From an uncultured Verrucomicrobiae bacterium (GTDB lineage: Bacteria > Verrucomicrobiota > Verrucomicrobiia > Chthoniobacterales > JAFAMB01), in the NCBI GenBank assembly GCA_963762565.1, contig CAVXLD010000004.1, forward strand, positions 64,001 through 128,000: 64,000 nt of DNA, written 5' to 3'. Below are positions 33,852-49,905 of the stretch, in pieces. The notes below the pieces were generated by a model that searched no databases, was not told where the DNA came from, and was given only the letters and a program-made list of their open reading frames with translations. A program made the translations under genes and the position numbers. The first letter of the stretch is position 1, and every line of letters starts with the position of its first letter.

Positions 33852-34023
33852 TTTAGGGACGCCAGCGGCTGGGGCAAACGTCATCTTCTAAGTAATCAGT
33901 AATCATTGTGTCAGCAATCAGTTCTCACGCCGATCGAAAACCGGAATCACCCAAGTGACTTGAACGCCATGCGCTCGGTTTGCGTCGGATGGCGTGCCAC
34001 GAGTAAGCCTCAGGCGCGTCGAA

Positions 34024-34067
34024 TGGCTACCGCGCATGGATTCGAACCATGAATAACGCCTCCAAAG
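34024..34067 (-). repeat. att site: duplicated 3' 44 bp of tRNA-Gln
   Basis: tggctaccgcgcatggattcgaaccatgaataacgcctccaaag identical to 49010-49053. Confidence 0.97.
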
Positions 34068-34154
34068 AGCATTATATTCCCTAGCAATCTTGAAAAAAGC
34101 AGCAGTATGCAGCAATTCGAGATTTTTAGCTATTGGTTTCTGGCATACCTACTC

Positions 34155-34724
34155 TTAAGCCGAATCGCCACGTTGAGCCGGCAGCGTTAAGAGCGGAGCT
34201 GGGGGAGGTTGCGCCAGCATAGCGTTGAGGGCGGAACGGCGTTGTAGGTCACGGAGTTGTAGATCGTGAACAATCGGTTGTGGAAGATAAACGCGCGCGA
34301 AATCGTCGGGTCGGAAATCAAGACCGACGTCCCTTGCGATACTCATAAGCAATTCCGTGCGCCTCTGATCGATTAATGGCGTGGGCCCCGCAGCCGGAAA
34401 ATTGCGCGGGTCATTAAGCGCTGAATAGAGATGTGCCCAAGTATCCCGCACACTCGGAACATCGTGAAAAACAGTATCGATAAGGTTAAGAGCCTTCACG
34501 CATTCGGGTTCGGCTATGAAATGGCGATGCTGCATGATGGTGGCGAATACCCACATTTTTACTCGCGCTTTTTCGGTGGCGGATTGCATTGACGCAGTTA
34601 GCTGCGCCGCGTCCAAAGGTGCTTTTTTTGTAGCGGCAACCGCTTTTGACGTCGCTATCGCCGCCCAGGTCGTGGCGATAGCCGCCCATATTGCTGCGAT
34701 TGCAGCGATCCATTCGGAGGACAT
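34155..34724 (-). CDS. DUF6680-like membrane-anchored protein
   Basis: N-terminal hydrophobic helix; KMWVFATIMQHR...VKALNLIDTVFH...VRDTW...LLMSIARDVG...YLP pattern recalled for DUF6680. Confidence 0.65.
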   Translation of the reverse strand: MSSEWIAAIAAIWAAIATTWAAIATSKAVAATKKAPLDAAQLTASMQSATEKARVKMWVFATIMQHRHFIAEPECVKALNLIDTVFHDVPSVRDTWAHLYSALNDPRNFPAAGPTPLIDQRRTELLMSIARDVGLDFRPDDFARVYLPQPIVHDLQLRDLQRRSALNAMLAQPPPAPLLTLPAQRGDSA

Positions 34725-34932
34725 TTGCGAGCCGAAAGGTACCACAATCGCCACAAAAACAAAGAGGCTCGTCAATTCCGGGTACGATGGCCGAGATTTC
34801 GCGAATATCCTGAACTTCGAGGACTCAGACGGATTAGGAAGAGATAGCTGAAGTCACGGGAGCAAATCCTCCTCGCTTTTATCTCTCCTTGTAATTTGTG
34901 TTCAGAAGCACATATTGTGGACCTCGATCCCA

Positions 34933-35718
34933 ATGAAGCCATTTCCACTCAACAAGGCAGACATACCCGTAGAGGATTTCTGGAATATGTCGCCCGAGCG
35001 ACGTTCTCAGATTGTGCTCTTGGGTGTGTTTTTGAACGAAACAAATTGGCTCATGCACCTTTTGGTAAAAGCCGCTCATGGTGTGCAAGATACTCCGCCA
35101 AGTCGTTTAACCCCAGAGGAGGAGGCAAGTGAAGCTGTTACCGCCTTGCTTGCTACAACGCTTGTCGGAAAAGTCTTTGAAAGCTGGAAATGTCTGATTA
35201 GGGGCGAGCGCGACAACAAAAGCGTCTTGGAAAAGCTTCCATTATCGGACAGGACCAAGCAGCTCAGAGACGTGGTCAGAAAGAAGGTTATGAGCAAACT
35301 GTTCCGTGAGATTCGCAACCATCTCGGGTTTCACTACGCCGCCGAGGAGATAAATATCGATCGACTTAAGGGCGTTATCACGGATCGAGATTCCCACATC
35401 TTTATTCATCCTCAAGGTTGCATCGGCTTTACGTTGTCGCGCCTGTCAACGCTCGCCATCCTTGAAGGTATTGTCGGAAAGAATTCCGCCAAAAACCGCA
35501 TCCAAGCTTTTGAGGACACCATAGCGAAGATCTTTGAGACAACAGGACCATACTCTGAATTTCTCTCGGGGGCGTTAATTGACGTGATACAAAGCGAGTT
35601 CGGGAAACGAAAACTTGGCGGCAAGAGGCTCTCGATTCAAGGCGCGCCAACAGACGAAGAAGTCGGGCCTCTCCGTTTCTTTACCCACCCACCGCAAGAA
35701 TTCTCGCCCAATCAATAG
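34933..35718 (+). CDS. Predicted HEPN-domain protein (AbiU2/Cthe_2314-like)
   Basis: Helical protein with REIRNHLGFHY (R-N-x4-H). Confidence 0.6.
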   Translation: MKPFPLNKADIPVEDFWNMSPERRSQIVLLGVFLNETNWLMHLLVKAAHGVQDTPPSRLTPEEEASEAVTALLATTLVGKVFESWKCLIRGERDNKSVLEKLPLSDRTKQLRDVVRKKVMSKLFREIRNHLGFHYAAEEINIDRLKGVITDRDSHIFIHPQGCIGFTLSRLSTLAILEGIVGKNSAKNRIQAFEDTIAKIFETTGPYSEFLSGALIDVIQSEFGKRKLGGKRLSIQGAPTDEEVGPLRFFTHPPQEFSPNQ

Positions 35719-35734
35719 CCAGAAAACGAAAATC

Positions 35735-35998
35735 ATGAACTTCGAAGAAGAGTCAAAAAGGGCTTTAAGAATAACGATCGAGTGGGCCGTAGAATATAAA
35801 CGACCTGGGGCCGGAACAATCCGCGAACAACTCCCTGCCGATTCTGTCTCAGAAGTGTGCACAAAATCGGGTTTTAATCCGCCCGAAGACCACGACTTTC
35901 GGGCACAAAAACTGCGGGTTATCGAATATCACAGTCACACGAAAACAAATTTCCCGGAAGGCGAATGGATTAGTTATTCCCCGCCGCCAACGGCTTAA
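35735..35998 (+). CDS. Hypothetical protein (87 aa)
   Basis: ATG 16 nt after the HEPN gene stop, same strand. Confidence 0.55.
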   Translation: MNFEEESKRALRITIEWAVEYKRPGAGTIREQLPADSVSEVCTKSGFNPPEDHDFRAQKLRVIEYHSHTKTNFPEGEWISYSPPPTA

Positions 35999-36017
35999 AA
36001 ATACCGATGCGGACGAG

Positions 36018-36188
36018 CTAAACTGGATTCCGCTTCAGGTAATCGTTGATTTTAGCGACGGTCTCCTTTCGCCCAACCGTGCGCCCAGTCATCCAAGCGC
36101 GAACGCCGTCAACGTTTGCGCCTAATTCGGCGGCTAGCTCAGTCTTCGTCATCCCGCAACGGATGCGAACAGCTTCGACTTTGCGCAT
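36018..36188 (-). CDS. XRE/Cro-like HTH protein (56 aa; possibly the C-terminus of a broken longer gene)
   Basis: Hand translation: MRKVEAVRIRCGMTKTELAAELGANVDGVRAWMTGRTVGRKETVAKINDYL; below the ORF-track cutoff. Confidence 0.7.
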   Translation of the reverse strand: MRKVEAVRIRCGMTKTELAAELGANVDGVRAWMTGRTVGRKETVAKINDYLKRNPV

Positions 36189-36905
36189 TAAAGCGGCGAA
36201 CTGCTTCCGTTCTTCGTCAGGACGACCCGGTCGCCGTATCCAGCCAGGCCGTCAAAAAGAAAAAGCCATTGCCATCGCCATCTGTACTGGGCTCATGGCC
36301 ATAATCTAATTCTTGGAATATTCTTCCTCTTGTGCCTTTTTTGTTTGCTTCTGTCTACAGTGAGCCCGCTTCCCGGCGCGATGTGGTTTAAGTCGTCCCA
36401 TAATTATTTGTTCCTGTCTTCGTATTTATCCCACGCTTCAAGAAAAGGCTCATACACAGCCGCGGGCGGTTTTTGCAAATTCACCAAAGACATGGGCGCG
36501 AATCGAACCAACTACTATCGAGCAATATCAGCAAACATGCAATAACTGCAATCAGCCTCAAAAGCAATTTGCAATAAGTGCAATAGATTGCAACATTCTT
36601 TGTGTCTGTATCTTTCTTTTTGCGTTCTCGTTAGGTTACTGTTCCACGCCAATGAAAACCCACCAAATAACATTGGCTCCCGAACCGAACCGAGACCGCG
36701 AATTCCGGGTGAGCGCCCGCGCCGAGGATAGAGGCCCTTACGACAGATATTTGGCCGTAGAAACACAACGGCCTAATGGCAAATGGCGAAGCGTGTTATC
36801 CGATGTGCTTTAAGGATTAGCGGAAGAAGGAGGAGGGGGCGGGAGGAGCCGAAGAAACAATCCGTATGATTCGCAGCGGCCAGATAAAATCTTTGGGGAG
36901 GCGAT

Positions 36906-37082
36906 ATGGCGACGCTGGCGCAATACGTGATCGCAAGTCAGGAGGGCATGACCCCGTTAGTTACCGCAGCAAACAAGAAAGAGGCACAGAAGTTTAGCAG
37001 GCAGGCCCGAATGTTGGGTTTTAGCGGTCGGATCGTTTTTCAGCCTCCGACGGTAAAGATGAGTTCAGCCCTCCCGTTATGA
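36906..37082 (+). CDS. Small hypothetical protein (58 aa)
   Basis: GGGGAGG Shine-Dalgarno, MATLAQYVIASQEG...; stop overlaps the next ATG (ATGA). Confidence 0.55.
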   Translation: MATLAQYVIASQEGMTPLVTAANKKEAQKFSRQARMLGFSGRIVFQPPTVKMSSALPL

Positions 37083-37261
37083 TCCAAATCGGTGACCGCA
37101 CGTTTCGCGGGTCTGAGCGCAAGGAACACGGCTACTCGATTTGTCGCCAGCGCGCCAATGGAAGCTGGCAACGCTGGATGCGGTTACATCATCTGAATGA
37201 CCAGGGCGACGTAGAGACAGCTATCCAGCTAATCCGCGCAAGCTTGCCCGCGCTTGTTTGA
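37079..37261 (+). CDS. Small hypothetical protein (60 aa)
   Basis: Translationally coupled to 36906..37082. Confidence 0.5.
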   Translation: MIQIGDRTFRGSERKEHGYSICRQRANGSWQRWMRLHHLNDQGDVETAIQLIRASLPALV

Positions 37262-38521
37262 TCTTCACACCATCTGTCTGGGCTGGAATAAGCAGCCCCC
37301 TGATATTCATGTCTAAGCCGAAGCCATTTATGCCTTGATCCTACGGAAATCGGTGATACCCTTTTCCAGCTCAATCCCCCCGCAGAAGGACGACAACCCT
37401 CCCTTCGAAATAGTTCGATAGAGGGTTGTATTCTAACTTTTTCGTCATCACCCTTTGGATCACTTCTTCCCAGCGATCCCACAACATCTAGATAACGCGT
37501 AAATATTCCACAAAAGCTTCATCTGGTCCTAAGCCTAGGGTCGTGTATATCCACAGACCTTCTTGTTAAAGTCCAGTTTATCATCTACAAGTGGATTGCC
37601 AATACCTGATTGGCTACCACTTTAATTGCTGCCCGCAACACCAGGTAGCTTAAGGTCACCTACAGTTTCTCCAGTTTGCTGATTTCCACGGCAAGCCATA
37701 GTTCTCTGTCTTCTAGCGATTGCTTCGACCTTGTACGACTAAGTCGTTGTAATTAATTGAAGCTTTAGGCCCGCGATCTTCAAATGTGGCGTCATGCCAC
37801 TCAATGATTGCTTCAGCGCCAGCTTCGAGAGGCGGACAACCCTAAGCCGATTTTTGCGCCATTTAGACAAAGTTGCTTTGTTAACACCTATCTGTTTTGC
37901 GATCTCGGACGCTGTTGCCGGGGGTATCTATCTTGTCACCAACTACTCTGGCAACTAAGAGAAAGAATTCTTAGTTTCTCTAGAGAAAAGTCAAACAACT
38001 GTTTGAAAGTTGCGCCGAGTTGCTGTTTCTAATGAAATTTCAGAAATCTTGAAAACGTAAGTGACGTACTCGCTTCGCACGCGCAAGCATGCTTACCAGA
38101 AATTTGAAGTAGCATCACGTGGGGGTGTGTTGAGACAATCCCCAAAGAACGACTTTGTAGGACTTGATTGGTGAACGTTATCACTTCATCCAATAACTAC
38201 GCTTAAGAATGTTACAGACTCGCCTTTGTGCGGAACAGATGCGTGGCGTGCCAAGCGTTTTGCTTACTGAATACAAGCCCAATTCCTTTCGGTATCCAGT
38301 TCCGCTGTTGCGCGACTTCCGTGGGCGGATTGGGCGGCGTTGAACAAACCAGTTATAACCCATTTTAATACTGGCTGCGATATCGTCGTTAAAAGTGGAA
38401 TAGTTTATACTTACAACAGGTACGAAATTCACCGATCTAAAGCTGCTACCGAGACTTTATCGAATGACAGTGCCGTAATTCGCGATCCCACCAGCCCATT
38501 ACATGTTTAAGATCGTGTCGT

Positions 38522-38830
38522 TTATGGACGTTCCGAAAGCCTCTTCGCTACAGCATTACGAACCCGCTCTTCAGGATCACTCTTAAGGGCCTCCAGGCTT
38601 TCGCGCTTGGCCGGGCCGAGCGATTGTAGACTGCCCGCGTTCAATCTGACCATTGTCATCACGCAGCAGCCCGTCCAGTACCTCACTAGGACATGATCGG
38701 TTTCGTGCAACCTCTGTCCGGACTGATAAGCTTTGGTCAGTTGCCAGCAAACACAACTGACCGATGGAAGCTCTCAGACTTTCTCGCCGCAGAGAAACGG
38801 ACTAATTCGTCGGAATCAAGAGCGGGATCG
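38522..38830 (-). pseudogene. Frameshifted LRV/HEAT-like repeat protein
   Basis: Fragments in different frames: DSDELVRFSAAR, LATDQSLSVRTEVARNRSCPSEVLDGLLRD, LEALKSDPEERVRNAVA. Confidence 0.55.
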
Positions 38831-38988
38831 GCGTTAGTATCTCGATCATGCGAATCCAAATAAGCGTCAAATGATCGCGAAAGGCGGGGTGCGGCCGGTC
38901 GCCACCTGAAGGCCCGAAAATCTGATTTCTCTTTCAGTGATGTCCAAAACTTAAGCCAAAATGGCGCGATATTTTAGACTCTGAAATT

Positions 38989-39885
38989 TTAATCATTTTT
39001 GCGCTCTAGAGTGTCGCCGAATTTCCCACGCGCTTTAAGCAAGAGGATTAGTCGTTCGTGCCACGACATGGGATTCCCAGGCTCCACAACACACAACGCC
39101 AGGACGTATTCCAAACATTCAATTGAGAACGCTTGAATCGTTTTATCAACTACTTGGCGAGTCACCTCCATTAAGGATACTAGTCCCAGAACGTCGAGAC
39201 CTTCTAGAGTTGCTAAATTTGAATCCACGATTCCGATAGATGTGTAGAGCTTGTTGGAGGTAGCCTCGGTGAGGTCGTCCATCGCCTCCAAAGCTTCTAG
39301 GAACGTCCGAGAAAAAGCCTCAAGATCCCAGACCGGCAGGGTAGCTATGTTCCCGGGGACCACAGCCCAATCGTGAAGAGAGTTGCGAACCGTTTCCGGG
39401 AGTCCGACCTTCGCTCCAAACTCAGCGAATGAAGTTCGAACGATCCCTTGCTCCTCGGGATCGGTGAATTTCGATATTAGGCGCTCCCAATTCGCCTCTA
39501 TGTCACCAACTGAAAGACACGCGGCACCGCGCAACCATAGTATCGAAAGCCATCCGCAATCGGAATAGACCTTATCTTGCCAGAGGGGTATAACCTCGTC
39601 CCTCAGCAGTGCCTCTAACGCTCGGGCGCGAAAAATGAGATCTATCGAACCGTCGTAATTTGGTGTGGGGCTATCTCCTACGGGTGCGTGGACGACAACA
39701 ACTTGATCGGCTTGGAATGACGCTGCCGGAATCGGACCTGAGGAGACATACTCAACAACCAGATCAATCAGGTTCAGCGAATTCTCCGCCTCAAGCCTAA
39801 TTTGAAACGCTTCGCTCTCGTCACGATTAAGTAGATATTTGGTCATCTCCGAAAACCTTTTGCGAAAGACCGGTCTCTGCAGCAC
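38989..39885 (-). CDS. Hypothetical acidic helical protein (~290 aa)
   Basis: Long open ORF with no recognised motif; start uncertain. Confidence 0.6.
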   Translation of the reverse strand: MLQRPVFRKRFSEMTKYLLNRDESEAFQIRLEAENSLNLIDLVVEYVSSGPIPAASFQADQVVVVHAPVGDSPTPNYDGSIDLIFRARALEALLRDEVIPLWQDKVYSDCGWLSILWLRGAACLSVGDIEANWERLISKFTDPEEQGIVRTSFAEFGAKVGLPETVRNSLHDWAVVPGNIATLPVWDLEAFSRTFLEALEAMDDLTEATSNKLYTSIGIVDSNLATLEGLDVLGLVSLMEVTRQVVDKTIQAFSIECLEYVLALCVVEPGNPMSWHERLILLLKARGKFGDTLERKND

Positions 39886-40708
39886 TCAGCGAATATTCCA
39901 GTTTTACTCGCGGACCCAGCAAATATTCAACCTCGGTGTGATTGTCTTTGAGAGACGCCAGTTTTAGCGCAGGTCTGGCCGTAATCTGGATCGGGACTCG
40001 CCACTATTCCGAATCGAAAAATTGAGGATAGGATATTTTTGATTTTGCTCGAAAACGATGACCGGTTCGCGGCCGCTCGACATGGCTTTTCAGAGACAGA
40101 CTATGCCCAAAGTGCTGGTACACGATGACGTCATGGCCTGCATAGACCTGATGAAGGCTAACGTTTTGCCCCGGCTCCGGGGCTATGCTTTTTTTGGTCC
40201 AGAATCGCTGTCGCTCGCACCACTGGAAACGTTTATATCCTTCTCAAGATCTACTCTCTGAACATGAGCACCCCTGGAGGTCTTGTCGGTCGCAGTGAGA
40301 CCGCCTTGCCTGCTTACGGCATCTTCGACTCTCACAGCCGCTTGAGGGCCAGTAGAGCGGCCTGAGTCTTTGGACTCGTTTGAGCCTTCGATGCTGTCTC
40401 ACCAAGCCGGGTCTTTAAAACCCATTTATAGATTTTCTGTAGGCAAGGAAGGCGCACAGGCCAGCAATTACGAGTACTACAAGGCCAATCAGCATGACAG
40501 TCTGCGTGTCCACGGCGGGCGATGCTAGCAAGTTGCAATGCTTATTGCAAGATCGGAAATTTCGCAGTCTTTCCTGCTTCAATCAGCTTCCATGCTTCTG
40601 GATACAAGTGGCAGATTGGGAGTTTTCGACGAAGGGCGAACGGCTACCGATCTAATGAAACAATTCACTGAACCGCCAAGATTGATTCCTCACGAAATTC
40701 CGACATCA

Positions 40709-40984
40709 TTACGCACCCGCTATTGGCATATTATCGCGGTGCTGCTTCCAAACATGCCAGACAGCCTCAGAAGCCAGTTTCAGACCAATCAACTCAAACC
40801 TCAAATCGAAGAGTTCTCGCTCGCGTTGAATCTCTGCAACCTCGCCGTTTCCTCTGCGAAAATAGTTTGTCAAAATCTCGTAGTGCACGTCGTCCAATCG
40901 CTTCAATTCTTTGGATGCTGAAAGGAACCAATCGCGAAAATCGGCGTGTGTATGTTTTATTTCTAGGGGATCACACAGAGTCAT
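40709..40984 (-). CDS. Hypothetical protein (91 aa)
   Basis: ATG 9 nt downstream of the protease-scaffold stop, same strand. Confidence 0.55.
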   Translation of the reverse strand: MTLCDPLEIKHTHADFRDWFLSASKELKRLDDVHYEILTNYFRRGNGEVAEIQRERELFDLRFELIGLKLASEAVWHVWKQHRDNMPIAGA

Positions 40985-40993
40985 AATATTTAA

Positions 40994-41981
40994 TTATTGT
41001 ATACCAGCGTTGGCTGTTAACCTGTTCTGCAATTTGATAGACTTAGCGCCCAAGCGGGTGAATGCCGCTTGAATAGCTGATTTGTTTTTTTGGTAGAAGC
41101 GCGACCGTTCGGTATCGTCAGTTATACCGTCTAGCGCCGCTAATATACCAACACCTTCGGTTGGTTGCGGCTCGGGCAAGCGGCTCAATTGATTCCGGTT
41201 TTTGCTAAGAGGCGACAGGCTAACACATTAGCTTGCTTCTCGAATTTTTCCGTTAACTCGACTCGTTGCGCTTCAAGCCTAGCCTGGAATTGCTGCTCTG
41301 TCGGAACGCTAGAAACATTATCCTTTGGCTCCAGCGATTCACAAAGCTTGTCTAACCGATCGGCTGCGTTATCGTGGAACGCTGCCAAGCGGCTTAGAAA
41401 CTGCGTCGTCTCGGCACATTGAGGACACTGGATTTGTACTGCACCCTTGCGCTTGTGCCCGCTCGGTACAACTTGAGCCGGAACAACTGTCGAGAGTTAG
41501 TAGCGGCTAAACCACCGTCAGAAAATAATCCACTGGTCGCGGCTGGGTCACTTACGATCGCAGCCCCGCTAATTGACTCACACCGCACAAAGTCTTTGCC
41601 GCCGATAGTTTGCGTCGTTGGGACGAACTCGACCGACAGCCCAAATTCCTTGGGCATTCGATCCGCGATTTCGAGTACATAATTTCGATGCTCGGATGAC
41701 TGAAGAAGTTGTAAATCTGCGCGCAGAGAATCGCCGTCCAACCGGAAATTACTCAGCGTTCCTACGAAGCTTGCGGCAGAATTTTGATGATCTAGTTTGC
41801 AACGCAAAGTCTTTTTGCTTTGGCAAGCCGTTAGAAAGCTCTGCAACGTTTTTGAATCAATGTGCAGATTGTGGCCAGCGGCAACACCCGTTTTGCTGGA
41901 TATCAGACAAACGCCCTTTATAAGACCTGCCGCACGGTCAATTTGTGATGCGCCGAATTTAGTTGTATAGGTTGTCATCAC
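40994..41981 (-). pseudogene. Phage prohead maturation protease-scaffold fusion split into three ORFs by two -1 shifts
   Basis: KLDH...VGTLSNFRLDGDSLRADLQLL...FGLSVEF...IVSDPAATSGLFS (His/Asp/Ser protease pattern). Continues after a shift near 41495 into a CPQC and coiled-coil segment, and near 41187 into ILAALDGITDDTERSRFYQKNK. Confidence 0.72.
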
Positions 41982-42505
41982 AATTTTGCGGCGTGGACGA
42001 TACGCGAAGTTAGTTGCGTTTGTTTGCGAGCAGCGTTTTCTAAGTCCGCAACACTGATGTACTTTTGCGGCCCAGCGTTTGAAGCCGCCGTGTTGTCTCC
42101 GACATGCAATGGCGGTCTTGTATTTCCGTCTGGATTCGGCACACCTTTTTGCATTCCGCTAGTAACTGTCTTTTTGAGCGCATCGCTCGTTGAGGCCCAG
42201 ATGTTTAGCAAATCGGCGTTACCTAAACTTTCGATGTGCTTCTGCAAAATATCGATCGCACCATAGATTGGGCTATCGTCGTTAGAACCTTCCATAGGAA
42301 CGCTGCCGTCAAAATCGCTATCGCCAATGTCGTCTTGGTCAACTCGTTGCGTATCGACGGGAGCGTTGCCTACATCAAATTGCTTGGTGCCCATCACATC
42401 GTTAAACCCCGATTGATGATTGAGAATGTAGCTTGTTCGACGGCCAGCCTTCAGCCAATTCTTTGCGGCTCGATTAAACTGTTGTTCTTGGATTGTTGTA
42501 CTCAT
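41978..42505 (-). CDS. Hypothetical protein (175 aa), coupled to the protease gene
   Basis: Stop overlaps the protease start; acidic, low-complexity centre. Confidence 0.65.
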   Translation of the reverse strand: MSTTIQEQQFNRAAKNWLKAGRRTSYILNHQSGFNDVMGTKQFDVGNAPVDTQRVDQDDIGDSDFDGSVPMEGSNDDSPIYGAIDILQKHIESLGNADLLNIWASTSDALKKTVTSGMQKGVPNPDGNTRPPLHVGDNTAASNAGPQKYISVADLENAARKQTQLTSRIVHAAKL

Positions 42506-42569
42506 ATCAAATTCGTTTTCTCTTGAATCGCTTTAAACTCGGCTTGACGCATCTCGCCTTGTAAGTTGG

Positions 42570-42866
42570 TTAGATACTCTTTGGTGTCCGCCATATCTGA
42601 TCGGTTAAGTCAAGATCCGGCAGTGGCTTAGAATAGCTTGTGTTGTGAAGAATCCTCGCGCCTTTATTCGGGTTAATCCAAGGCGCGGACGTAAACGCGT
42701 TCAGCCGGGTGAAGTTAGCTACGCTCAAACCAACGTCGTTAGCTAGGAAGCCCGACAGCAAACCTTCGCTAAAACCTAACGTGCGAGATAAACGGGCTTG
42801 GCTACATTGATTCTCGAAAAGCCACTCTTTTACCTGGCGTCGAAGTTGGAAATAAGGATCTTGCAT
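42570..42866 (-). CDS. XRE-like HTH protein
   Basis: SQARLSRTLGFSEGLLSGFL helix-turn-helix pattern. Confidence 0.65.
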   Translation of the reverse strand: MQDPYFQLRRQVKEWLFENQCSQARLSRTLGFSEGLLSGFLANDVGLSVANFTRLNAFTSAPWINPNKGARILHNTSYSKPLPDLDLTDQIWRTPKSI

Positions 42867-43179
42867 AATTCTAAATACACTTCAGTCTCGTTGAAGGCTT
42901 AACTGTATTTGAAATAGAGACTCTCGGATCTACATAGGTGCAAAACGATGCGCCACCCGTTGCTAAATTCGGGATGAATCGTACGAGAGCTTGTTAATCG
43001 ATGTCGGTGCGCGCGGTAAGTTATGGTTTTGGCAAAATGTCAAACGGGTTCCTTGTAAGCCTAAAGAAAATGTAACCGCGCGGGCCGCATCGAGGAGATT
43101 GTTAGTTAGTTGCTGCAAGAGCCTCGATCGTCCTTGGTTAGCGATCGAGGTTCACTGTTTTAGAATTACGATTTCAAGC

Positions 43180-43719
43180 ATGAGTACGCCGAATAAAATC
43201 GATTCCATCGTTGGCGATCCACGAGTTCACGCAATTTTAGCCGCCGCGTCCTTCAACGGATTGATCTGGTTAACGCCAGACGGCAAACGCTATCCGATCT
43301 TACAGAGAATCGCCGAACTATACCCAACCGCTTCGCGATCCTTGCGCCAACACGTTGTGCGTCGCCTTAGCGGACGAGAGCGTAAGCCCGTTAAACGCAC
43401 TGCCAGCCCACCGAAACGCGCGGACGTCGCTAGAGTGTCGAGGCTACCCAAGCCGCCCAAATGTCGCGCCAGAGTCAAACTTGCAATTGCAACGGCAGCA
43501 CCGCAAATTACGTTGCCGCCGATTAAAGAGGTGGAGCATCGAGCACAGAAACGCACTAGCTTTTCGTTTCTAGGCCCAGATGGGTTTACAGGCTATTCGT
43601 TCGACTCTTTTGGCGAGGCGAGGCAGGCCCGCGAGGCTCTAAGGCCAGAATACACTCAGGCTGAGATTTTCAACCAAGTGAAACGCGCACCCGGTAGGCC
43701 CTGCGGCTCGGACGAGTAG
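43180..43719 (+). CDS. Hypothetical basic protein (179 aa)
   Basis: ATG at 43180 within a track ORF; followed by a hairpin. Confidence 0.5.
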   Translation: MSTPNKIDSIVGDPRVHAILAAASFNGLIWLTPDGKRYPILQRIAELYPTASRSLRQHVVRRLSGRERKPVKRTASPPKRADVARVSRLPKPPKCRARVKLAIATAAPQITLPPIKEVEHRAQKRTSFSFLGPDGFTGYSFDSFGEARQAREALRPEYTQAEIFNQVKRAPGRPCGSDE

Positions 43720-43751
43720 TAACGACGGGCGGCCCGGATCTTTTGAAAGAC

Positions 43752-43783
43752 AAGGAGCCCGAATTTTCTCCGGGCTCCTTCTT
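43752..43783 (+). terminator. Probable intrinsic terminator
   Basis: AAGGAGCCCG-aattttctc-CGGGCTCCTT-ctt. Confidence 0.55.
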
Positions 43784-44726
43784 CGTGCTCAGTCTAAGAA
43801 TGTACGGTCAGATCATCAATTCAAAGGCTGCCCACGGATTTGGGGGGGGATCTAAGATTTCCCTAACAAGGCGTCGCCCTCCAATATGTATTTGAAAGTC
43901 TTGTAAAAGCTTTTGCGTATTGCAGAAGGTCAAGCGAAAGCTGATCGCGCCGTCAGCCGGTCGGCATGGGGCCAGCAACGCGGACGAGGCTCTCGCCAAT
44001 CGCTGCGGCTTTTGCGTTCGGGCTCGCCGCCTACAAGTCAGGCCTGTGCGCTTCCAATAGCTGGCATTCTTGCTCAAGCCACAGTCGGACATAAGGCGCG
44101 ATCGTTGGCACGGAGCTAGAGAGATGATTCATCGAATTAAGCCAAGCCTCTTGTTCCAAGTCAGTGGATGACCGGCCCTGAGAGCTGAACGTCACAGTCG
44201 AGCCGTCCTTGTGTCTCCATATAAACAAAAAATTCTCGGTTCCCATCCCTGGGTTGGATTCTAAATTCGAAAAATGTTAGCGAACACGCTTTGAAGGGGA
44301 GTCTTCCAGAGCGCCCTGCAACCCTCCAATATGTAATGCAAAGCGTTGTGAGAGCTTTTGGGTATGGCAAAACGTGAACCCAAAGCTGATTGCAACGCCA
44401 GAACGCTGCAAGTCTTGTAGGCGATTCGGAACGTCTTTAGAGATTCTAGGACAAAAAAAGAGACAGAGGCGCAAGGAGCGGCGAACTAGAATAGGAGCCC
44501 GGGGGACCGTGCACGGACGCATTGCCCGACTTCGCATCTGGGTGCCTCCATGAGGTGCCCGGTGCCTGCTCCCGAACAAGGGAACGCGGATCGTTCGGGC
44601 GCTTAACGGTTAGAGGGGGGGGAAAAGGTCATTCTGCTGGAGCAGAGTGACCTTTTCATTGTTGAGCCGCCCACAAGCCCCTCCAGACGTTCGCAAATCG
44701 CTTAGCGCATGCTTCGGCGGTCCACT

Positions 44727-46034
44727 TCATTTTTTCAATCCGCGTTCCAATTCAGCCTCTAGTCTCTCGATTTTATTAGCCGCAATTGCTGCTTCGTTTG
44801 GGGTGCACCCGCGATCCACTGTCATTTTCTTTATTTTGAGATAACGCATTAAGTCCGCTTTTCTCTCGTCGATTTGTTCTTGTCTGACAGCAAATTCCTC
44901 TTTTGTTAGTCTTCGCGGTACATCGGGCACATCGGTCACCGGTTCCGGCGTTTGTGGATCACCGCAAACCATTTTCACAACTTCTGCAACGTCCTCGGCA
45001 TGCTGACGGGCTTTCTCAGACTTGATAGCCTTCGCCTTTGTCACCTCGGCTGGTTCGACATAGTTTTTTCCCTTCCATCGGCGGCGTCCGACTCTGACGA
45101 CGGGCATCATGTTTTCGTCTCTCACGCTGTTGCAGAGGTTGCGCCATTTGTAGTGCGCATACTCCTCCAGATCCATTTCTCGAATCTCTGTTGACGGTGA
45201 GGACGCTTGAAACTGCTCTAGAATACCGATTCGCTGCGGGTCCTTAATAACCCAACCTGGTATATCGTTGACGTGCGTTTCTGGCATCGCGCCGAACAAT
45301 ATCCAAAGCTTGACCTGAACGTCGGTCTTCGGTTTGCGGCTCGCTTTCTCTTGGGCTAGCGCTGCTCTCGCCTTTTCAATCTCGGCATCGCTCGGGTTAG
45401 CAACGCTGGGGTGAGTGCCCGACCAAAGACTGGAGCCGTGAGAAACGAAGAATCCTTTTTTGTTCCTTCCTGTGTGGTGAATTGATTCCGCAGCTTCACG
45501 GTCACAACCGCAAATCTTCATTATTTCTTCTAACAGAGCAGCCAATGACCTGACTGTTATTTTGCTAAATTTATCTCGGTGTGTGTCTTCAACCTTCCAG
45601 TCGCCGATTTTGCCGGACTTCGGCGAGATACCGAACCGAAAACTTGGCTCGGTGCCGTGGTACGACAACCATTGTCCGGTGCCCTTCTTAGCCCGGTTAT
45701 TCTGTGCGTCCCATTCAATAACGAATATCTTGGAATCCAACTCAGGACATTTAATCGGGCGGCCTCGTGTGAGTGCTCTCCTGGCTGCTAACGCGGCTTG
45801 ACTTGGTCCCGCAAGAATATTGTTCCAATAGTCATTGCAAAAAGCTAACTGCTCTTTGCTCAGCATATCAACTTCGATCTCGCTAAATTGACACCCCGGA
45901 CATAACGAATAGAAACCGGGGTACTTTATTTTGGCGTGCTCTCTAGCTATCGCTACCAACCAATCGTTTTCGTTTCGTATCGACCAGCCGCTAGCAAATG
46001 TTGATGGGTCTACCTTTTTGACTTCAGCTGTCAT
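44727..46034 (-). CDS. Hypothetical protein (435 aa) with C-terminal DUF2786-like motif
   Basis: C-terminal KIKKMTVDRGCTPNEAAIAANKIERL; the rest is unrecognised. Confidence 0.7.
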   Translation of the reverse strand: MTAEVKKVDPSTFASGWSIRNENDWLVAIAREHAKIKYPGFYSLCPGCQFSEIEVDMLSKEQLAFCNDYWNNILAGPSQAALAARRALTRGRPIKCPELDSKIFVIEWDAQNNRAKKGTGQWLSYHGTEPSFRFGISPKSGKIGDWKVEDTHRDKFSKITVRSLAALLEEIMKICGCDREAAESIHHTGRNKKGFFVSHGSSLWSGTHPSVANPSDAEIEKARAALAQEKASRKPKTDVQVKLWILFGAMPETHVNDIPGWVIKDPQRIGILEQFQASSPSTEIREMDLEEYAHYKWRNLCNSVRDENMMPVVRVGRRRWKGKNYVEPAEVTKAKAIKSEKARQHAEDVAEVVKMVCGDPQTPEPVTDVPDVPRRLTKEEFAVRQEQIDERKADLMRYLKIKKMTVDRGCTPNEAAIAANKIERLEAELERGLKK

Positions 46035-46183
46035 CCGAGACCCCTTCTATTAAAAAGCGCGATGGGGTCCGAACGCGTGCCCCCCCTTGCGGGGGAGGCG
46101 CGGTAGCGCCAGCGTTTGGTGCCCCGGAGCGCAATCGTTCGATAGAGAGTCAGTCAGTCTCGAAAAGATAATTCCTCTTAAGG

Positions 46184-46490
46184 CTTCTTGGGTACTGCAC
46201 AACGCGACTCCGTCGCCCGCGTTGGGAGCGGCTGCGGTTGCGCAGTACCTAAGAAGATATGAGACATGCTCGCATGTCTCGCTGGCGCTGTACTGACTCA
46301 TGCTAAAATGTCTCGCTAGACTATACAGACCAGTACCGGATATGTCTCGCTGGTTAGACTGACCAGTACCAAAACATCTCGCTGGCGTGCAGTCACGATA
46401 TCCGACAGCATTGTCTCGGGAGATCATGACTACATAGTCACGGTAAACGTCTCCGAAAAGAGACGTTTGCGAAAGACTCCGCTTGCAAAC
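46184..46490. other. Putative replication origin: ~34-bp iteron-like repeats and multiple hairpins
   Basis: ATGTCTCGCT units at 46274, 46308, 46342, degenerate at ~46374, 46411, 46447; hairpins at 46184-46256, 46261-46280, 46427-46440, 46445-46468. Confidence 0.55.
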
Positions 46491-46584
46491 CGACGAGAAT
46501 AGTTTACCATCGAAACACTTTAGTTTGTTTTGTTGCTGCTCGGATCCGCTCACCTTCGCTCGGTGAGCGTTTCCATTTATAGGC

Positions 46585-46824
46585 TCATCGGGCGGGCTCA
46601 TGTTTGCGGTCCTTTCGTGGTCGTCCTCGCTTGAATTCTCCTGCGTCTCGCCGGTTCAGATAATCTCTGGAATCTTCTGGCATGATAAAGAATCGTCCGC
46701 CAACACGGGTGGCCTGCAGCTTCCCTTTGTGGATGTGGTATATGACCATCAGTTTCGAGATACCCGCCTGACGAGCCATTTTCTCAGTAGTGACTAGGTC
46801 GTTCGGATTAAATTGGTAGTTCAT
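46585..46824 (-). CDS. Excisionase-like HTH (HTH_17/MerR-type) protein
   Basis: LVTTEKMARQAGISKLMVIYHIHKGKLQATRVGGRFFI; C-terminal KRGRPRK AT-hook-like motif. Confidence 0.8.
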   Translation of the reverse strand: MNYQFNPNDLVTTEKMARQAGISKLMVIYHIHKGKLQATRVGGRFFIMPEDSRDYLNRRDAGEFKRGRPRKDRKHEPAR

Positions 46825-47090
46825 CGTGATAATTAACTTTTTGTCGTTTAATATTAACTACACCATTAGACGTGCGAAGACGCCGAGGGTTCAAAAGTTA
46901 GTTGAAGGTTAAAGACGATTTTAAAGCATAAGAAAGTTAGACGAAACTAACTTGGATTTGTATAGTCAAAACAACAAGTGACTGTTGTCATTTCAAACTA
47001 TTTGTTAATCTAACAAATGTCACGACGAGCCTAGTTGCGGACTGAATGTAATAAGCTTGAAACGTATGGCAGTCCGACCGAAAATCGGCT

Positions 47091-47534
47091 ATGGATAGAC
47101 CCCCCACTTCAGAAGAAGAACGATTCGCGAAACTGCTAGAAGCGGAAATCGAACCTAGATTTTACCTCAGAGTAAAACGCGAACGCCAAGCGGAGACGCT
47201 AGAAGAAGTTCATGATTCTTACCGACTTCTTATGAGAGCCACGGATGTTTCGGGATGGACACCCGAGAGATGCCATTTCTCAAGTCAATTAAACATAACA
47301 ACCATTGGCGGAGATATCTTGAAGATGTGGGTACGAACCGTCGCCGACTTAGTTGTCGAAAGGCTTCTTAGTATTATTCCGAAATCGGAAGGCAGAATCG
47401 TGTTAATGGTGACTTCGCTTGTTTTCTTGGCAGATCCGAAAGATCCTGGCGCTGAGATATTTAATAATTATATCTCATTTCAGTATCATGTCGACGAGGT
47501 GGGTATCAGAGGCGTCCGCTGGTCGCCTGCATAG
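47091..47534 (+). CDS. Hypothetical protein (147 aa), divergent from xis and convergent with int
   Basis: Open ORF flanked by an AT-rich divergent region and a terminator. Confidence 0.6.
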   Translation: MDRPPTSEEERFAKLLEAEIEPRFYLRVKRERQAETLEEVHDSYRLLMRATDVSGWTPERCHFSSQLNITTIGGDILKMWVRTVADLVVERLLSIIPKSEGRIVLMVTSLVFLADPKDPGAEIFNNYISFQYHVDEVGIRGVRWSPA

Positions 47535-47564
47535 GCTGTTCGAACCACCACGGCGCTGTCATTA

Positions 47565-47604
47565 TGACAACAAAAAGGCCGGATTGATTACCGGCCTGTT
47601 GTCA
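47565..47604. terminator. Bidirectional hairpin between convergent genes
   Basis: TGACAACA..AGGCCGG-attgatta-CCGGCCT-GTTGTCA. Confidence 0.55.
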
Positions 47605-48882
47605 GGAGATTTTGTGCTTTACCTCGTCGGATTCGGGCTTTTCTTGCCCGAGTAAATGATTCAGCGCCTCGCCTAACTCCTCGGGACTTTCGACCATGCG
47701 CAACTTGAACCATTGCGCGCCAGTCTCCGGAGTCAGCACTTCTAAGTAGTGCCTTTTGATGGTCGCCTCCGACGTGCCCGCCCAACGCGACAATTGCGCA
47801 ATTCCCGCATCAGGATTCGCGGCCAGCCAATGCGATATCGCTGAACGTCGCAAGCCGTTGTGGATAATCTGGACGTCGGCAATCTGATGCACCAACCGCA
47901 ACCATTTGCTGAACTCAACATGCATCACCGGCACGATTGGTCCGGCGCTGCCTTTGTATGGCTCAATCCACCGCAATAGAGCGTCGGTTATCGGCACAAA
48001 TCTTTCGTTGCCTGCCTTGCGTTTTGTTGCTTTGCCGACGCTAGCGCGAACGTGAATGCGCTTATTTTTCCAGTCTACATCTTCCCATTTCAGAACGTCT
48101 TCGGCAGCATACAGTTTGACCAGTTCAGAGGTCCGAAACCAGCCAAACCCTTGCAGCGCCAATGCGGGGATCAACCAACTTGGAAGCTTTTCGCTATTGC
48201 CTGCCACATGTATCAACAGCTCGCCGAATTTAATGCCGGTATAGACTTGCTGTGCCACGTGTGGAACGTCGGGCGCTTTCAGTAAATCAATCGGGTTCTC
48301 AATCAACCATCGATGCCGCACACCATAGTCAAACAATGGCTTGATTCTCTTGAAGTAGCTTCTGATGGTCCACGGTTCCGCTGGTACCTCTCTCTTTTTC
48401 TTCCCCTTCCCTTTCTTAACTTTTAGACCGTGTAACCAAGTCTCAAGTTCGCCGCTGTGAATCTGGTGCATTAAGCGGTCGGGAAATGCTTCAGAAAACG
48501 TCTTTTGGCGGTGGCGTATGTCTGATGCGGTTCGCTTGCTAACCTTCGGCAAATGCCATTCCTGAAATGCTACAACAGCATCCTGTACAGTAATAGGCTC
48601 GATCGATCCCGAACCTGTCGCCTTCCAATGCGCGATGACTTCGGCAAGCTTTCCGAGATCGCCCAATTGCTGACGCGCAAAACAAATCCAAGTCCGTTCT
48701 TCTGCGGTCACCATAGAGCGCCCGTGCTCTTCGACATCGCCCGCTCTTTTCTTAATATCCTTTTTAGCCGCGTCTTCGCTCTCGAAATACGCCATCTCGC
48801 GCTTACCGGCTTTATTGGAAAGCCTGACAGGATATTGCACTACCCAGCGGCCATCTTTCTTGAATGGTTTGGGACGCTTCAT
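47602..48882 (-). CDS. Tyrosine recombinase / integrase
   Basis: GWFRTSEL (R), VGKATK (K), HNGLRRS (HxxR), AGTS, KRHYL (Y); adjacent to the tRNA att site. Confidence 0.93.
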   Translation of the reverse strand: MKRPKPFKKDGRWVVQYPVRLSNKAGKREMAYFESEDAAKKDIKKRAGDVEEHGRSMVTAEERTWICFARQQLGDLGKLAEVIAHWKATGSGSIEPITVQDAVVAFQEWHLPKVSKRTASDIRHRQKTFSEAFPDRLMHQIHSGELETWLHGLKVKKGKGKKKREVPAEPWTIRSYFKRIKPLFDYGVRHRWLIENPIDLLKAPDVPHVAQQVYTGIKFGELLIHVAGNSEKLPSWLIPALALQGFGWFRTSELVKLYAAEDVLKWEDVDWKNKRIHVRASVGKATKRKAGNERFVPITDALLRWIEPYKGSAGPIVPVMHVEFSKWLRLVHQIADVQIIHNGLRRSAISHWLAANPDAGIAQLSRWAGTSEATIKRHYLEVLTPETGAQWFKLRMVESPEELGEALNHLLGQEKPESDEVKHKIS

Positions 48883-49009
48883 GTTGTGCCGCAGTTTACA
48901 GCATGTACGCAGCAAACGCAGCAAATTTTACGAGAAGAGAGATGGCGACCCACTTTCTACCTTGTGTTATTAAGCGCCAGTAACCGATTGATTAACAGCT
49001 ACTTAAGTC

Positions 49010-49083
49010 TGGCTACCGCGCATGGATTCGAACCATGAATAACGCCTCCAAAGGGCGCTGTGTTACCGTTACACCACGCGGTA
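49010..49083 (-). tRNA. tRNA-Gln (anticodon UUG), CCA encoded
   Basis: TACCGCG acceptor stem, anticodon arm GCGCC-CTTTGGA-GGCGT, GGTTCGAATCC T-loop, GCCA end. Confidence 0.97.
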
Positions 49084-49379
49084 AAGCGAGGACGAAACAC
49101 TTAAGGCAAAACCCCGGATTCGCAAGGGGCAATATTGTGCCGGCAGCGAGACAGAAAACGCATTTCACAGAAGATCACAAAGGACACAAAGACAGATTCA
49201 ACAGAAGTAACAGAGGCAACGGAGGCTTTGGAGGGGGTGCAAATCTGGGCACAGCTGTGGTTGGGTTTTCACCTGTTTTCGTTCGTACCCTGTCGGACTT
49301 TTTTGCGATCTTTGCGATCTTTCGTGGCTATTATTGTCTTTTTTTGGCCCACGTCGATTCGGCTTTGTGTCGAAGCCCG

Positions 49380-49649
49380 CTAAGTGGGCAAAAGTTCCAT
49401 TGTCCAACAATCACAGCCCTGATTTACCCTTGGCAGGTTTGGGAGCGCATCCTCCTTATACGGCTCAGGATTGTAAATGGTGACCCGTCGCTCCGTGGTA
49501 TGCTTGGCTAGAAAAACGGTTTGCACGAACGCCTGCGCTGAGTCGCTCTTAGTAAGCTGATGAAGGCCGCATTCGATACCGACAAGATAGTGGTAGGTCT
49601 CGCCCCCTTCTCCCGTTTCTACCCGGACAGAGTAGACGTTTTCGGGCAT
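49380..49649 (-). CDS. Hypothetical protein (89 aa)
   Basis: MPENVYSVRV...; the longer track ORF extends into a repeat. Confidence 0.45.
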   Translation of the reverse strand: MPENVYSVRVETGEGGETYHYLVGIECGLHQLTKSDSAQAFVQTVFLAKHTTERRVTIYNPEPYKEDALPNLPRVNQGCDCWTMELLPT

Positions 49650-49816: not shown

Positions 49817-49905
49817 TCATACCGTACCCTCCGGGACGGATCTCGGTTTGCACGTGTCCCAGGCAGTAAACTGCCTGGCTACCCTCAGTCAGTCCCTCCG
49901 GGACG
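49817..49905. repeat. REP family D copy
   Basis: CCCTCCGGGAC twice and CCAGGCAGTAAACTGCCTGG; inverted relative of 30215-30305. Confidence 0.75.

Follow-up and report, generated by a model that had tools for sequence, protein, structure and literature searches.

Integration site and boundaries of the island

The window analysed here is a 64-kb stretch of DNA, whose sole tRNA gene, tRNA-Gln(ttg) (49010-49083, minus strand), carries an insertion of 14,986 bp. The insertion is bounded by exact 44-bp repeats: the tRNA-proximal repeat (49010-49053) corresponds to the 3' 44 nucleotides of the tRNA gene, and the identical distal repeat (34024-34067) marks the far end of the island. The direct repeat extends to 58 nt at 90% identity (34024-34081 and 49010-49067), with the initial 44 nt identical. 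The start-to-start spacing of 14,986 fits the size of ~15 kb claimed in the first-pass annotation, which had also placed exact att repeats at tRNA-Gln.

The empty site is found in a 312-nt metagenome contig, which links position 34023 to 49010 with 44 letters in common. In addition, homologs of the island flanks lie ~2 and ~4 kb apart, on a single contig each, in two congeners (G599 and G168), and island DNA is absent among the matches listed across 40 family genomes. With a tyrosine integrase, direct repeats at the 3' end of a tRNA gene and an empty site in relatives, the island is a discrete and real integrative mobile element.

Backbone genes and the iteron block

Read from the tRNA, the order of the genes agrees with that described earlier, namely integrase, convergent ORF, Xis-like HTH protein, iteron/inverted-repeat block, 435-aa ORF, HTH protein, 175-aa ORF and protease. 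The tyrosine integrase (47602-48924, minus strand, with the true start probably located further in) matches phrog_1 at E 1.8e-18 and scores slightly below the cut-off against Pfam Phage_integrase (25.2 bits), and inspection of its translation by eye reveals the R, HxxR and Y motifs. The convergent 147-aa ORF (47091-47534, plus strand) has no family in family and profile searches, and other assemblies as well as a JGI contig encode an identical protein. The adjacent 79-aa protein (46585-46824, minus strand) is Xis/AlpA-like, with weak matches to HTH_17 (E 0.0036), the phrog_66 excisionase (E 1.7e-4) and the TIGR01764 excisionase domain (E 1.4e-4).

The iteron-like block (46184-46385) contains four copies of the 12-nt repeat ATGTCTCGCTGG, spaced 34, 34 and 32 nt at 46274-46385, together with a 20-nt inverted repeat at 46184-46256. 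It is located inside a 183-aa ORF (46050-46601, minus strand), which is left open by the gene callers in three assemblies (183-192 aa) and bears no resemblance to its positional counterpart in the C10 element. Next to the block, the 435-aa core protein (44727-46034, minus strand) has only seven homologs, and neither a family in profile searches nor an informative fold match was found for it (AF2 model, pLDDT 57). A paralog (31-34% identity) adjoins an Xis gene in a second island elsewhere in the genome; this second island has the Xis/435-aa module in common with the present one and contains no phage gene. The position of the 435-aa protein beside the repeats suggests a candidate role as an iteron-binding initiator.

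Beyond the 435-aa gene, the earlier gene order left out two features: repeat-bearing DNA of ~1 kb (43800-44600) and a plus-strand 179-aa ORF (43180-43719) with no family in profile searches. They are followed by a 98-aa HTH-like regulator (42570-42866, minus strand), weakly similar to the phrog_1468 repressor (E 0.0066), and by the 175-aa ORF (41978-42505, minus strand), whose stop overlaps the start of the protease gene, with which it forms a two-gene unit. The 175-aa ORF has 14 homologs of 105-198 aa, with no match among 400 further genomes of the order or in IMG/VR. One of the homologs is located on a 9,744-bp JGI contig, the same size as the contig of the closest protease relative.

Far-end cargo

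Directly 3' of the protease-scaffold gene is a 91-aa ORF with no family (40709-40984, minus strand), which also occurs on the 23,516-bp contig carrying one of the intact protease copies (P0185). The next cargo ORF (38989-40003, minus strand) encodes 298 aa as assembled and probably ~337 aa, since a 2-nt insertion behind 39831 in a metagenome contig would fuse its two frames. Its product appears helical by eye, has no family and is negative with our own major capsid protein (MCP) profile. Atlas gives leads only for this ORF, to DUF6138 (0.88) and a ZorC-like protein (0.84). Further out are a 56-aa Xre-type HTH gene (36018-36188, minus strand), within a 750-bp module (36058-36800) common to two other sites of the genome, and a 261-aa ORF with no family (34933-35718, plus strand), whose 90% cluster includes a protein on 19 metagenome contigs. 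The last gene encodes a DUF6680 protein (34155-34775, minus strand; PF20385, E 6.6e-20). The cargo had been described as defence genes, which our searches do not bear out: DUF6680 is the sole named domain that Pfam detects in it, and PADLOC, run on 17 ORFs, returned nothing but AbiEi matches limited to the HTH of the Xis-like protein.

The protease-scaffold gene

The gene at 40997-41981 (minus strand) encodes a prohead protease (residues ~1-160) followed by a scaffold-like C-terminal half. It has 1,597 relatives at E<=1e-3, mostly 250-450 aa long, which align to residues ~1-160. Among 69 sequences, H37, H65 and S116 are near-invariant and the PAAN motif is also conserved; in the alignment, all 42 rows have the Ser and 41 have the His, the lone exception being an alignment slip. 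On the basis of HK97 and T4 work, we take H65 and S116 to be the catalytic residues.

The AF2 model (pLDDT 84) resembles T4 gp21 (5jbl) and the HSV, EBV and HCMV herpesvirus proteases in Foldseek, with probability 1.00 and TM 0.4-0.56. In line with this, BFVD contains 211 matches at E<=1e-3, many labelled as prohead or capsid maturation protease. The window protease matches neither Pfam families (Peptidase_S78 and the like) nor the PHROG head maturation protease profiles, even at E<=10, and only three of 16 relatives give weak matches to curated protease profiles. The family is a divergent, uncatalogued branch, and the modelled fold, which is the assemblin fold of phages and herpesviruses, identifies the island gene as a genuine phage-derived prohead serine protease, fused to a C-terminal half that resembles a scaffold.

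In the window, its coding sequence is broken up among three frames (41394-41981, 41188-41496 and 40997-41227), with breaks near 41495 and 41189. The identification as a protease-scaffold stands by its fold, conserved His and Ser and ~1,600 relatives, whereas the split departs from the earlier description. Three proteins from other assemblies in the same 90% cluster, P0185 (328 aa), P0184 (321 aa) and P0186 (221 aa, N terminus cut), span both breaks, and relatives at 44-57% identity (P0010, P0024 and P0158) likewise read through both positions. The breaks are probably assembly errors, because three other assemblies of the same island carry one gene of 321-328 aa. If they are real for this strain, this copy of the protease is dead.

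Search for other head genes

No capsid, portal or terminase was found with PHROGs or Pfam in the island ORFs, nor in stop-to-stop frames of at least 55 aa (108 of 119 frames covered by PHROGs, 69 of 119 by Pfam). Moreover, our own MCP, portal and TerL profiles, with which a left-out MCP scored 4.7e-61 as a control, detected none of these proteins in any six-frame island piece of at least 35 aa. PHROG and Pfam searches of the ORFs and six-frame pieces likewise gave no relaxase, T4SS or partition gene. These results uphold the earlier statement that recognisable capsid, portal, terminase, relaxase and T4SS genes are absent from the island.

The whole genome, which is 94% complete, contains no capsid, portal or terminase detectable with phrog_15, phrog_21, PF05065, PF03354 and PF03237 or by tblastn with the head proteins of four relatives. 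No helper prophage was found in it, and no terS or cos/pac site was found for the island, the terS rows being limited to 23-residue HTH matches at 37742-37927. As judged from these profiles, the protease-scaffold is the only recognisable virion gene of the island; a very divergent capsid protein could hide among the unassigned ORFs.

Lone protease genes in other genomes

The first-pass annotation had proposed a search of related genomes for the protease without a capsid gene, and this search yielded two complete tRNA islands and two partial loci. Among 19 informative loci of more distant protease relatives, 14 are normal phage head modules, in which the gene lies between portal and MCP, and five are lone; the window copy is not so placed. 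All 11 portals beside phage-borne relatives match phrog_21. A tRNA-Gly island of 16.5 kb with a 37-bp repeat (G663) contains an integrase, a Rep-O-like protein, a DnaC-like loader and a 441-aa protease-scaffold, and a tRNA-Met island of 10.6 kb with a 41-bp repeat (G020) contains an integrase, a primase, a helicase and a 267-aa protease. Neither island has an MCP, portal or TerL. The two partial loci (G824 and G664) belong to other families and also show no MCP, portal or TerL, and the phrog_21 portal is absent from all four genomes. The common content of the three complete islands is limited to the protease and a weak integrase similarity.

The lone proteases do not cluster on a quick tree (five changes for five rows, and no more than that in any of 500 shuffles). 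Hence there is no lineage of lone copies, and any one of them may be a remnant that arose independently.

The island as a candidate phage satellite

Our analysis suggests, with a probability of about 0.4, that the island is a phage satellite of PICI/P4 life-style, in which the protease-scaffold acts on helper capsids and the 435-aa protein with the iterons is responsible for replication. The process would begin with infection of an island-bearing cell by a helper phage whose head genes are of the TerL(phrog_15)-portal(phrog_21)-protease-MCP type. The island protein would enter the helper procapsids via its scaffold half and, like SaPI CpmB or Rcm, compete there with the scaffold of the helper, so that capsid assembly might be disturbed or resized to the advantage of the 15-kb island. 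Through its protease domain, the island protein would remove itself at maturation, and the 435-aa protein together with the iterons would replicate the island after excision. Helper dependence, packaging and capsid redirection are steps that we infer, and the island is a plausible new variant of satellite.

A broader proposal, that tRNA-integrated satellites of this soil-bacterial class have repeatedly and independently captured the helper protease-scaffold fusion and kept it as their sole morphogenesis gene, is tentative and on balance doubtful. If it were true, it would represent a new route of capsid piracy, with the satellite supplying a catalytically competent internal scaffold in place of that of the helper. 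Lone-protease islands would escape the satellite and virus finders now in use, since they carry no hallmark gene.

Alternative explanations

Among the alternatives, a deleted prophage survives best, and we regard it as unlikely. Here a tRNA-Gln phage would have lost its portal, capsid, terminase and tail, with the protease-scaffold as a functionless leftover. The usual position of the family between portal and MCP agrees with such an origin, as do the scatter of the lone copies on the tree and a bare protease fragment in another genome (G137). Moreover, ORFs of at least 100 aa fill 0.60 of the island versus 0.85-0.87 of the flanks. The two frameshifts of the window copy also point to decay, but consensus errors are favoured: three other assemblies have an intact gene, and the indels at other places differ from one assembly to the next. 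Compared with the window, metagenome contigs also have indels at 39831 and 40395 that would lengthen the reading frames again. In addition, a decaying prophage is difficult to reconcile with the complete lack of portal, MCP and TerL fragments in the six-frame searches, with the integrase, Xis, 435-aa and 175-aa genes, which are all full length compared with relatives, and with the two complete repeat-bounded islands of 10-16 kb, which retain the protease alongside replication genes and without other head genes.

It is improbable that the island is a non-packaged genomic island, which moves otherwise or rarely and uses a captured protease-scaffold as an anti-phage decoy that poisons capsid assembly. 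A lone protease that is intact elsewhere and recurrent would suit a decoy, and so would the lack of a detected terS, packaging signal and helper prophage. However, PADLOC finds no known defence family in the island, and the size (10-17 kb), tRNA site and integrase-Xis-replication-morphogenesis layout are those of satellites, as presented in PMC10085698 and PMC9618062. Furthermore, in the known satellites treated in PMC5644958 and PMC12409344, interference and piracy are usually coupled. The least probable reading is an integrative plasmid-like or mobilisable island with no link to phage parasitism and the protease as incidental cargo: the iteron block and 435-aa protein resemble a plasmid-type replication unit and the second island has the Xis/435-aa module with no phage gene, but no relaxase, T4SS or partition gene was found here, and chance cargo hardly explains why lone proteases turn up again in tRNA islands that are otherwise unrelated.

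Comparison with known satellites and phage head modules

The satellite reading can be compared with systems of known composition, and the earlier view that the gene set is unlike P4, SaPI or capsid-forming PICIs is borne out. Like the PICIs and cfPICIs of the SatelliteFinder definition, as given in PMC10085698, the island has an integrase by the attachment site, an AlpA/Xis-type HTH protein, a size within 10-17 kb and, at the end opposite the integrase, accessory genes. The PICI core in that definition comprises an integrase, an AlpA/MerR/Stl regulator, a primase-replicase, terS and morphogenesis genes. The integrase and, by weak HTH_17 and excisionase matches, the AlpA-type regulator are present in the island, whereas no primase-replicase or small terminase was detected with PHROG and Pfam in ORFs and six-frame pieces; the 435-aa protein might stand in place of the replicase. 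The cfPICI core (capsid, terL, head-tail adaptor and connector) is absent from the island by profile searches, and the HNH gene of PICIs and cfPICIs was not found in it. Some PICIs bear a serine protease within a 'head decoration' module, according to PMC10085698.

P4, through the external scaffold Sid and Psu, and PLE, through TcaP, reshape helper capsids with one dedicated satellite protein, as described in PMC7552001 and PMC10945586. A single capsid-altering protein is likewise proposed for the island; Sid forms an external cage, whereas the island candidate would be an internal scaffold that bears a protease. No PHROG match to P4 families (sid, psu, delta, alpha primase and so on) or PLE was obtained among 24 ORFs and 108 frames.

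The phage head-module fusions from this bacterial order (L036-L044, L054, L055; G490) belong to the same family at 25-46% identity and share the two-part build and the catalytic residues. They are located between portal and MCP, beside TerL, whereas the window copy has the 175-aa ORF in the portal's place and no MCP.

A functional parallel may be provided by SaPI1 CpmB/CpmA and SaPIpT1028 Rcm, which PMC5644958 and PMC12409344 describe as satellite-encoded alternative internal scaffolds. They are likewise encoded by small integrative islands that lack a capsid gene and have one or two genes for morphogenesis. The action proposed for the window island from its sequence is alike, namely rivalry with the helper scaffold at the major capsid protein. 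The window island differs from SaPIs in having no detected terS and in its host, a soil bacterium of another lineage. Moreover, CpmB and Rcm are small helical proteins, whereas the island gene encodes a full homolog of the protease-scaffold fusion, in which the His and Ser are kept.

An integrative element at tRNA-Gln

The island (34024..49053) is inserted in the tRNA-Gln(ttg) gene at 49010-49083 on the minus strand, the sole tRNA of the window and the only Rfam match. The 3' part of this gene recurs at 34024 over 58 nt with 90% identity. The first 44 nt are identical, in line with the exact 44-bp att repeats of the first-pass annotation, and the two repeats are 14,986 nt apart from start to start. 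GC content inside them is 0.44–0.53, somewhat below that of the flanks (0.50–0.58). Logan contigs from four soil-metagenome runs were aligned over 33500-49600, and one 312-nt contig fuses 34023 to 49010, with 44 nt matching both sides. In its left arm, six letters and one gap set it apart from the window. This contig is an empty site in a related strain; it is evidence of presence/absence polymorphism and does not show ongoing excision. Among 40 other family genomes searched at the DNA level, the congeners G599 and G168 carry homologs of the flanks ~2 and ~4 kb apart on a single contig, and among the matches listed none falls inside 34068-49009 except repeats of the window's own genome. The island is a real integrative element. 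Just outside it, a ~90-nt element (49817-49907) has many copies in family genomes, for example about ten listed in G602, and a short repeat (32909-33077) recurs in the window's own genome on contigs C1, C3 and C7.

Read from the tRNA, the integrase gene (47602-48924, minus strand; phrog_1, E 1.8e-18) comes first, followed by a convergent 147-aa ORF and a 79-aa HTH_17/excisionase-like protein. An iteron-like block contains four copies of ATGTCTCGCTGG spaced by 34, 34 and 32 nt, together with a 20-nt inverted repeat. It sits within a 183-aa ORF that is open in three assemblies and shows no relationship to the ORF at the same position of a second element on contig C10. Further from the tRNA lie the 435-aa ORF (44727-46034, minus strand), a weak HTH, the 175-aa ORF (41978-42505, minus strand) and the protease ORF. 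The order proposed earlier thus holds for the genes it listed. What it left out is a plus-strand 179-aa ORF and a stretch of ~1 kb that contains a pair of 80-nt repeats. These repeats, at 43877-43956 and 44322-44401, are located between this ORF and the gene for the 435-aa protein; they are 78% identical and 445 nt apart. Similar copies (74–88%) are located on contig C1 (1145038-1145406 and 1135041-1135114), and overlapping ~95-aa ORFs at the repeats share a motif.

A divergent prohead protease with a scaffold-like tail

The 195-aa ORF at 41394-41981 has no Pfam, PHROGs, NCBIfam or PADLOC match, even at E ≤ 10. HMMER, run in full against 1.84 billion representatives, nevertheless retrieves 1,597 relatives at E ≤ 1e-3, of which 649 reach E ≤ 1e-10. 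Most of them are 250–450 aa in length, and they match residues ~1–160. In an alignment of 69 sequences, H37, H65 and S116 are near-invariant and a C-terminal PAAN motif is present. The AF2 model is confident over residues 11–155 (mean pLDDT 84), and Foldseek matches it with probability 1.00 to T4 gp21 (5jbl) and to the HSV-2, EBV and HCMV proteases (TM 0.4–0.56, E 7e-4 to 7e-3); MCE-domain matches are interleaved in the list with TM below 0.25. In addition, 211 BFVD models match at E ≤ 1e-3, many of them named prohead or capsid maturation protease. The C-terminal halves of the relatives yield coiled-coil matches and weak Mu-like_Pro and Phage_scaffold matches, and nothing else. PDB sequence searches gave nothing useful, and P0185, the same protein in another assembly, has no tblastn match among 50,697 GenBank phages. 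Sequence and predicted fold bear out the earlier naming of this gene as a prohead protease with a scaffold-like tail; its family, judged by sequence, is an uncatalogued divergent branch.

Breaks in the protease gene

In the window, the protease gene (40997-41981, minus strand) is spread over three frames. Alignment with two full-length relatives, P0010 (329 aa) and P0024 (322 aa), is split over 41981-41493, 41469-41173 and 41191-41012. The 90%-identity cluster of the window protein comprises P0185 (328 aa), P0184 (321 aa) and the N-truncated P0186 (221 aa), from three other assemblies; all three read through both break sites and match all three window frames. Against these assemblies, a single base is missing from the window near 41495, and another from an A run near 41189. 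Each assembly has private indels elsewhere, the C-terminal end of P0184 differs from that of the other assemblies, and the 435-aa gene is cut to 309 aa on a 24,628-bp contig. Among the indels listed, metagenome contigs have two additional nucleotides behind 39831 and one behind 40395, the latter in two runs. The former insertion would join 39830-40003 to 38992-39885 and the latter 40335-40541 to 40186-40398. Cover of 41018-41554, which spans both protease breaks, by metagenome contigs is patchy.

Since the gene is intact in three assemblies, each assembly has private indels and the metagenome contigs have indels as well, the two breaks most likely stem from errors in the consensus of an island with low coverage. 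They could also mark a pseudogene private to this strain. Pseudogenisation in a decayed island, a possible reading of the frameshifts, was dropped once the other assemblies were found to read through both breaks. ORF cover is 0.60 in the island and 0.85–0.87 in the flanks; if the breaks are errors, this difference is poor evidence for decay, and in the cargo half one cannot rely on the ORF calls. The island, whose coverage is probably low, contains many 1–6-nt indels relative to other assemblies and metagenome contigs, also at 36269-36340, 37056, 37920-37933 and 43737-43800, which likewise makes its ORF calls unreliable. The flanking host genes look intact, unlike the indel-rich island.

The protease-scaffold is the only recognisable head gene

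The first-pass annotation had found no recognisable capsid, portal or terminase gene, and the profile searches agree. PHROGs on the 24 island ORFs and 108 stop-to-stop frames gives HTH matches only (36021-36251 and 37742-37927), as does Pfam on the same ORFs and 69 frames. Our own profiles, built from the head modules of protease relatives (MCP n=10, portal n=11, TerL n=8), find nothing below E 0.1 in the island, and a left-out control MCP scored 4.7e-61 with the MCP profile. Moreover, the genome (93.7% complete) has no match to phrog_15 (the TerL type of phage-borne relatives), phrog_21 (their portal type), PF05065, PF03354 or PF03237, and no tblastn match to the TerL, portal and MCP of four relatives. 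By these head-gene profiles and tblastn, no resident helper prophage is detectable. The protease-scaffold is probably intact, and it is the only recognisable virion gene in the island.

Lone proteases recur in other tRNA islands

Loci of protease relatives were taken from searches of ~400 genomes each in the phylum (5/401, the window's own genome included), order (16/401) and class (10/401), together with one IMG/VR locus. With the window left out, there are 22. Full head modules, with the MCP beside the protease and mostly with a phrog_21 portal and phrog_15 TerL, make up 14 of them (G490, L016, G428, G419, G694, G073, G108, G145, G121, G022, G770, G690, G968 and G930); the IMG/VR contig encodes protease and MCP as a single fusion. 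Three loci (G191, G738, G045) are uninformative matches at contig ends. Three phage head modules of the order hold a 1,120–1,383-aa ORF (L036:491-4642, L037:3286-6813, L038:4062-7424), which in L037 and L038 separates the portal from the protease-scaffold. Neither the protease subfamily nor P0170 gave a match in genome-contig scans, and P0010 and P0024 gave none in IMG/VR; an IMG/VR scan with alignment A4 gave a single distant phage locus and nothing else.

The remaining five loci have a lone protease. The G663 island (16.5 kb) is bounded by a 37-bp repeat of tRNA-Gly and encodes an integrase, a Rep-O-like initiator, a DnaC-like loader and a 441-aa protease-scaffold, whose start overlaps a 159-aa ORF, followed by ORFs of 269, 236, 540 (restriction-endonuclease-like) and 558 aa. 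The G020 island (10.6 kb), bounded by a 41-bp repeat of tRNA-Met, encodes an integrase, a primase, a helicase, a 206-aa ORF, a 267-aa protease and ORFs of 606 and 211 aa; an apparent loss of the catalytic His in this protease was dismissed after pairwise alignment. In G824, a 154-aa ORF overlaps a 277-aa protease with no MCP in 9.5 kb downstream, and the contig ends upstream. G664 has a partial lone locus at a contig end, and G137 a 152-aa protease fragment. The phrog_21 portal is absent genome-wide from G663, G020, G824 and G664 (94–96% complete). The search of related genomes for the protease without an MCP thus yields two further complete tRNA islands, and the oddity of the lone protease recurs in tRNA islands with their own replication genes.

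The three complete islands have in common only the protease and weak integrase similarity, and the small ORFs upstream of the protease in lone islands show no detectable relationship. A quick tree intersperses the lone proteases with phage-borne ones (five changes for five rows, no clustering compared with shuffles), although most forks are unsupported and the starred branches alone would permit a single origin. That the island is a prophage remnant, its protease the last of a lost head module, is an unlikely reading, and the low ORF cover says little for it. If such islands were remnants, the repeated survival of the protease gene alone would still want explanation.

Core and cargo proteins

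The 435-aa protein has seven homologs, all metagenomic or from other assemblies; none occurs in 200 other genomes of the order, and metagenome contig scans for relatives gave nothing. A 31–34% paralog, itself with no other relative, is encoded in the same genome, where it adjoins an HTH_17 Xis gene. It belongs to a second element, C10:39030-58375, with a 34-bp repeat of tRNA-Leu(tag) at its boundaries. This element has no head gene; it contains an integrase, IS21 fragments, three HTH_17 genes and a 514-aa protein composed of an HTH and a phrog_6247 region. For the 435-aa protein, AF2 gives a poor, mostly helical model (pLDDT 57), whose fold search returns generic helical hairpins only (Z ≤ 7.8); PDB sequence searches gave nothing useful and the ESM Atlas no usable match. 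From its position, the protein is a putative iteron-binding initiator.

The 175-aa ORF has 14 homologs of 105–198 aa, and searches of 400 other genomes of the order and of IMG/VR did not find the family. One homolog is located on a 9,744-bp JGI contig; the contig of P0158, the closest protease relative, has the same length, which suggests a conserved pairing of the two genes.

The claim of defence cargo lacks support: PADLOC finds no defence match in the cargo, and DUF6680 is the only named domain. For the 298-aa cargo ORF, the ESM Atlas gives DUF6138 (0.88) and ZorC-like (0.84) matches, both under 0.9 and below a meaningful level; neither this ORF nor a 62-aa HTH piece has a tblastn match among 50,697 GenBank phages. 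That the island serves defence only is doubtful, ranking below a remnant. The 261-aa cargo ORF (34933-35718) has a member of its 90%-identity cluster on 19 metagenome contigs, the longest of 36,612 bp, and is therefore far commoner than the island core genes. A 750-bp module (36058-36800) is 85% identical to C3:80281-81008 and partly, at 72%, to C10:43892-44012. It is composed of a 56-aa Xre-type HTH gene, an almost identical stretch of ~190 nt and a small ORF. The ~190-nt stretch, which is better conserved than the coding parts beside it, is a candidate regulatory RNA or site; the module matches nothing in Rfam.

Interpretation and comparison with known satellites

We favour, with a probability of roughly 0.4, the reading of the island as a satellite with a hijacking protease-scaffold. 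The proposal of a new helper-dependent satellite type keeps its integrative island, its genuine lone protease-scaffold and now its recurrence, with its defence cargo unsupported. Any explanation other than this satellite, a remnant or a defence-only island is improbable.

If the satellite reading is true, the range of satellites would take in a soil lineage that is little studied, and islands that lack a capsid gene and carry a single divergent head gene would be shown to go unnoticed by Pfam, PHROGs, PADLOC and viral-contig catalogues. The finding provides a search rule, namely the family protease present and the cognate portal absent, which already singles out five genomes.

Known satellites reshape helper capsids via small dedicated proteins such as CpmB, Rcm, Sid and TcaP, and in an alternative strategy a cfPICI supplies a whole capsid module. 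A limited full-text literature search, which does not prove absence, found no description of satellites with a whole protease-scaffold fusion as sole head gene. The SatelliteFinder authors describe a serine protease as occasionally present in PICIs, and cfPICIs as carrying a protease along with capsid, terL and connectors (PMC10085698); marine VEIMEs are described as wholly without capsid genes (PMC9618062). The protease-scaffold of the island would act as a competing internal scaffold, and its likeness to CpmB and Rcm (PMC5644958, PMC12409344) lies in this proposed role. A satellite with a full protease-scaffold homolog as its only head gene would, if true, represent a third capsid strategy.
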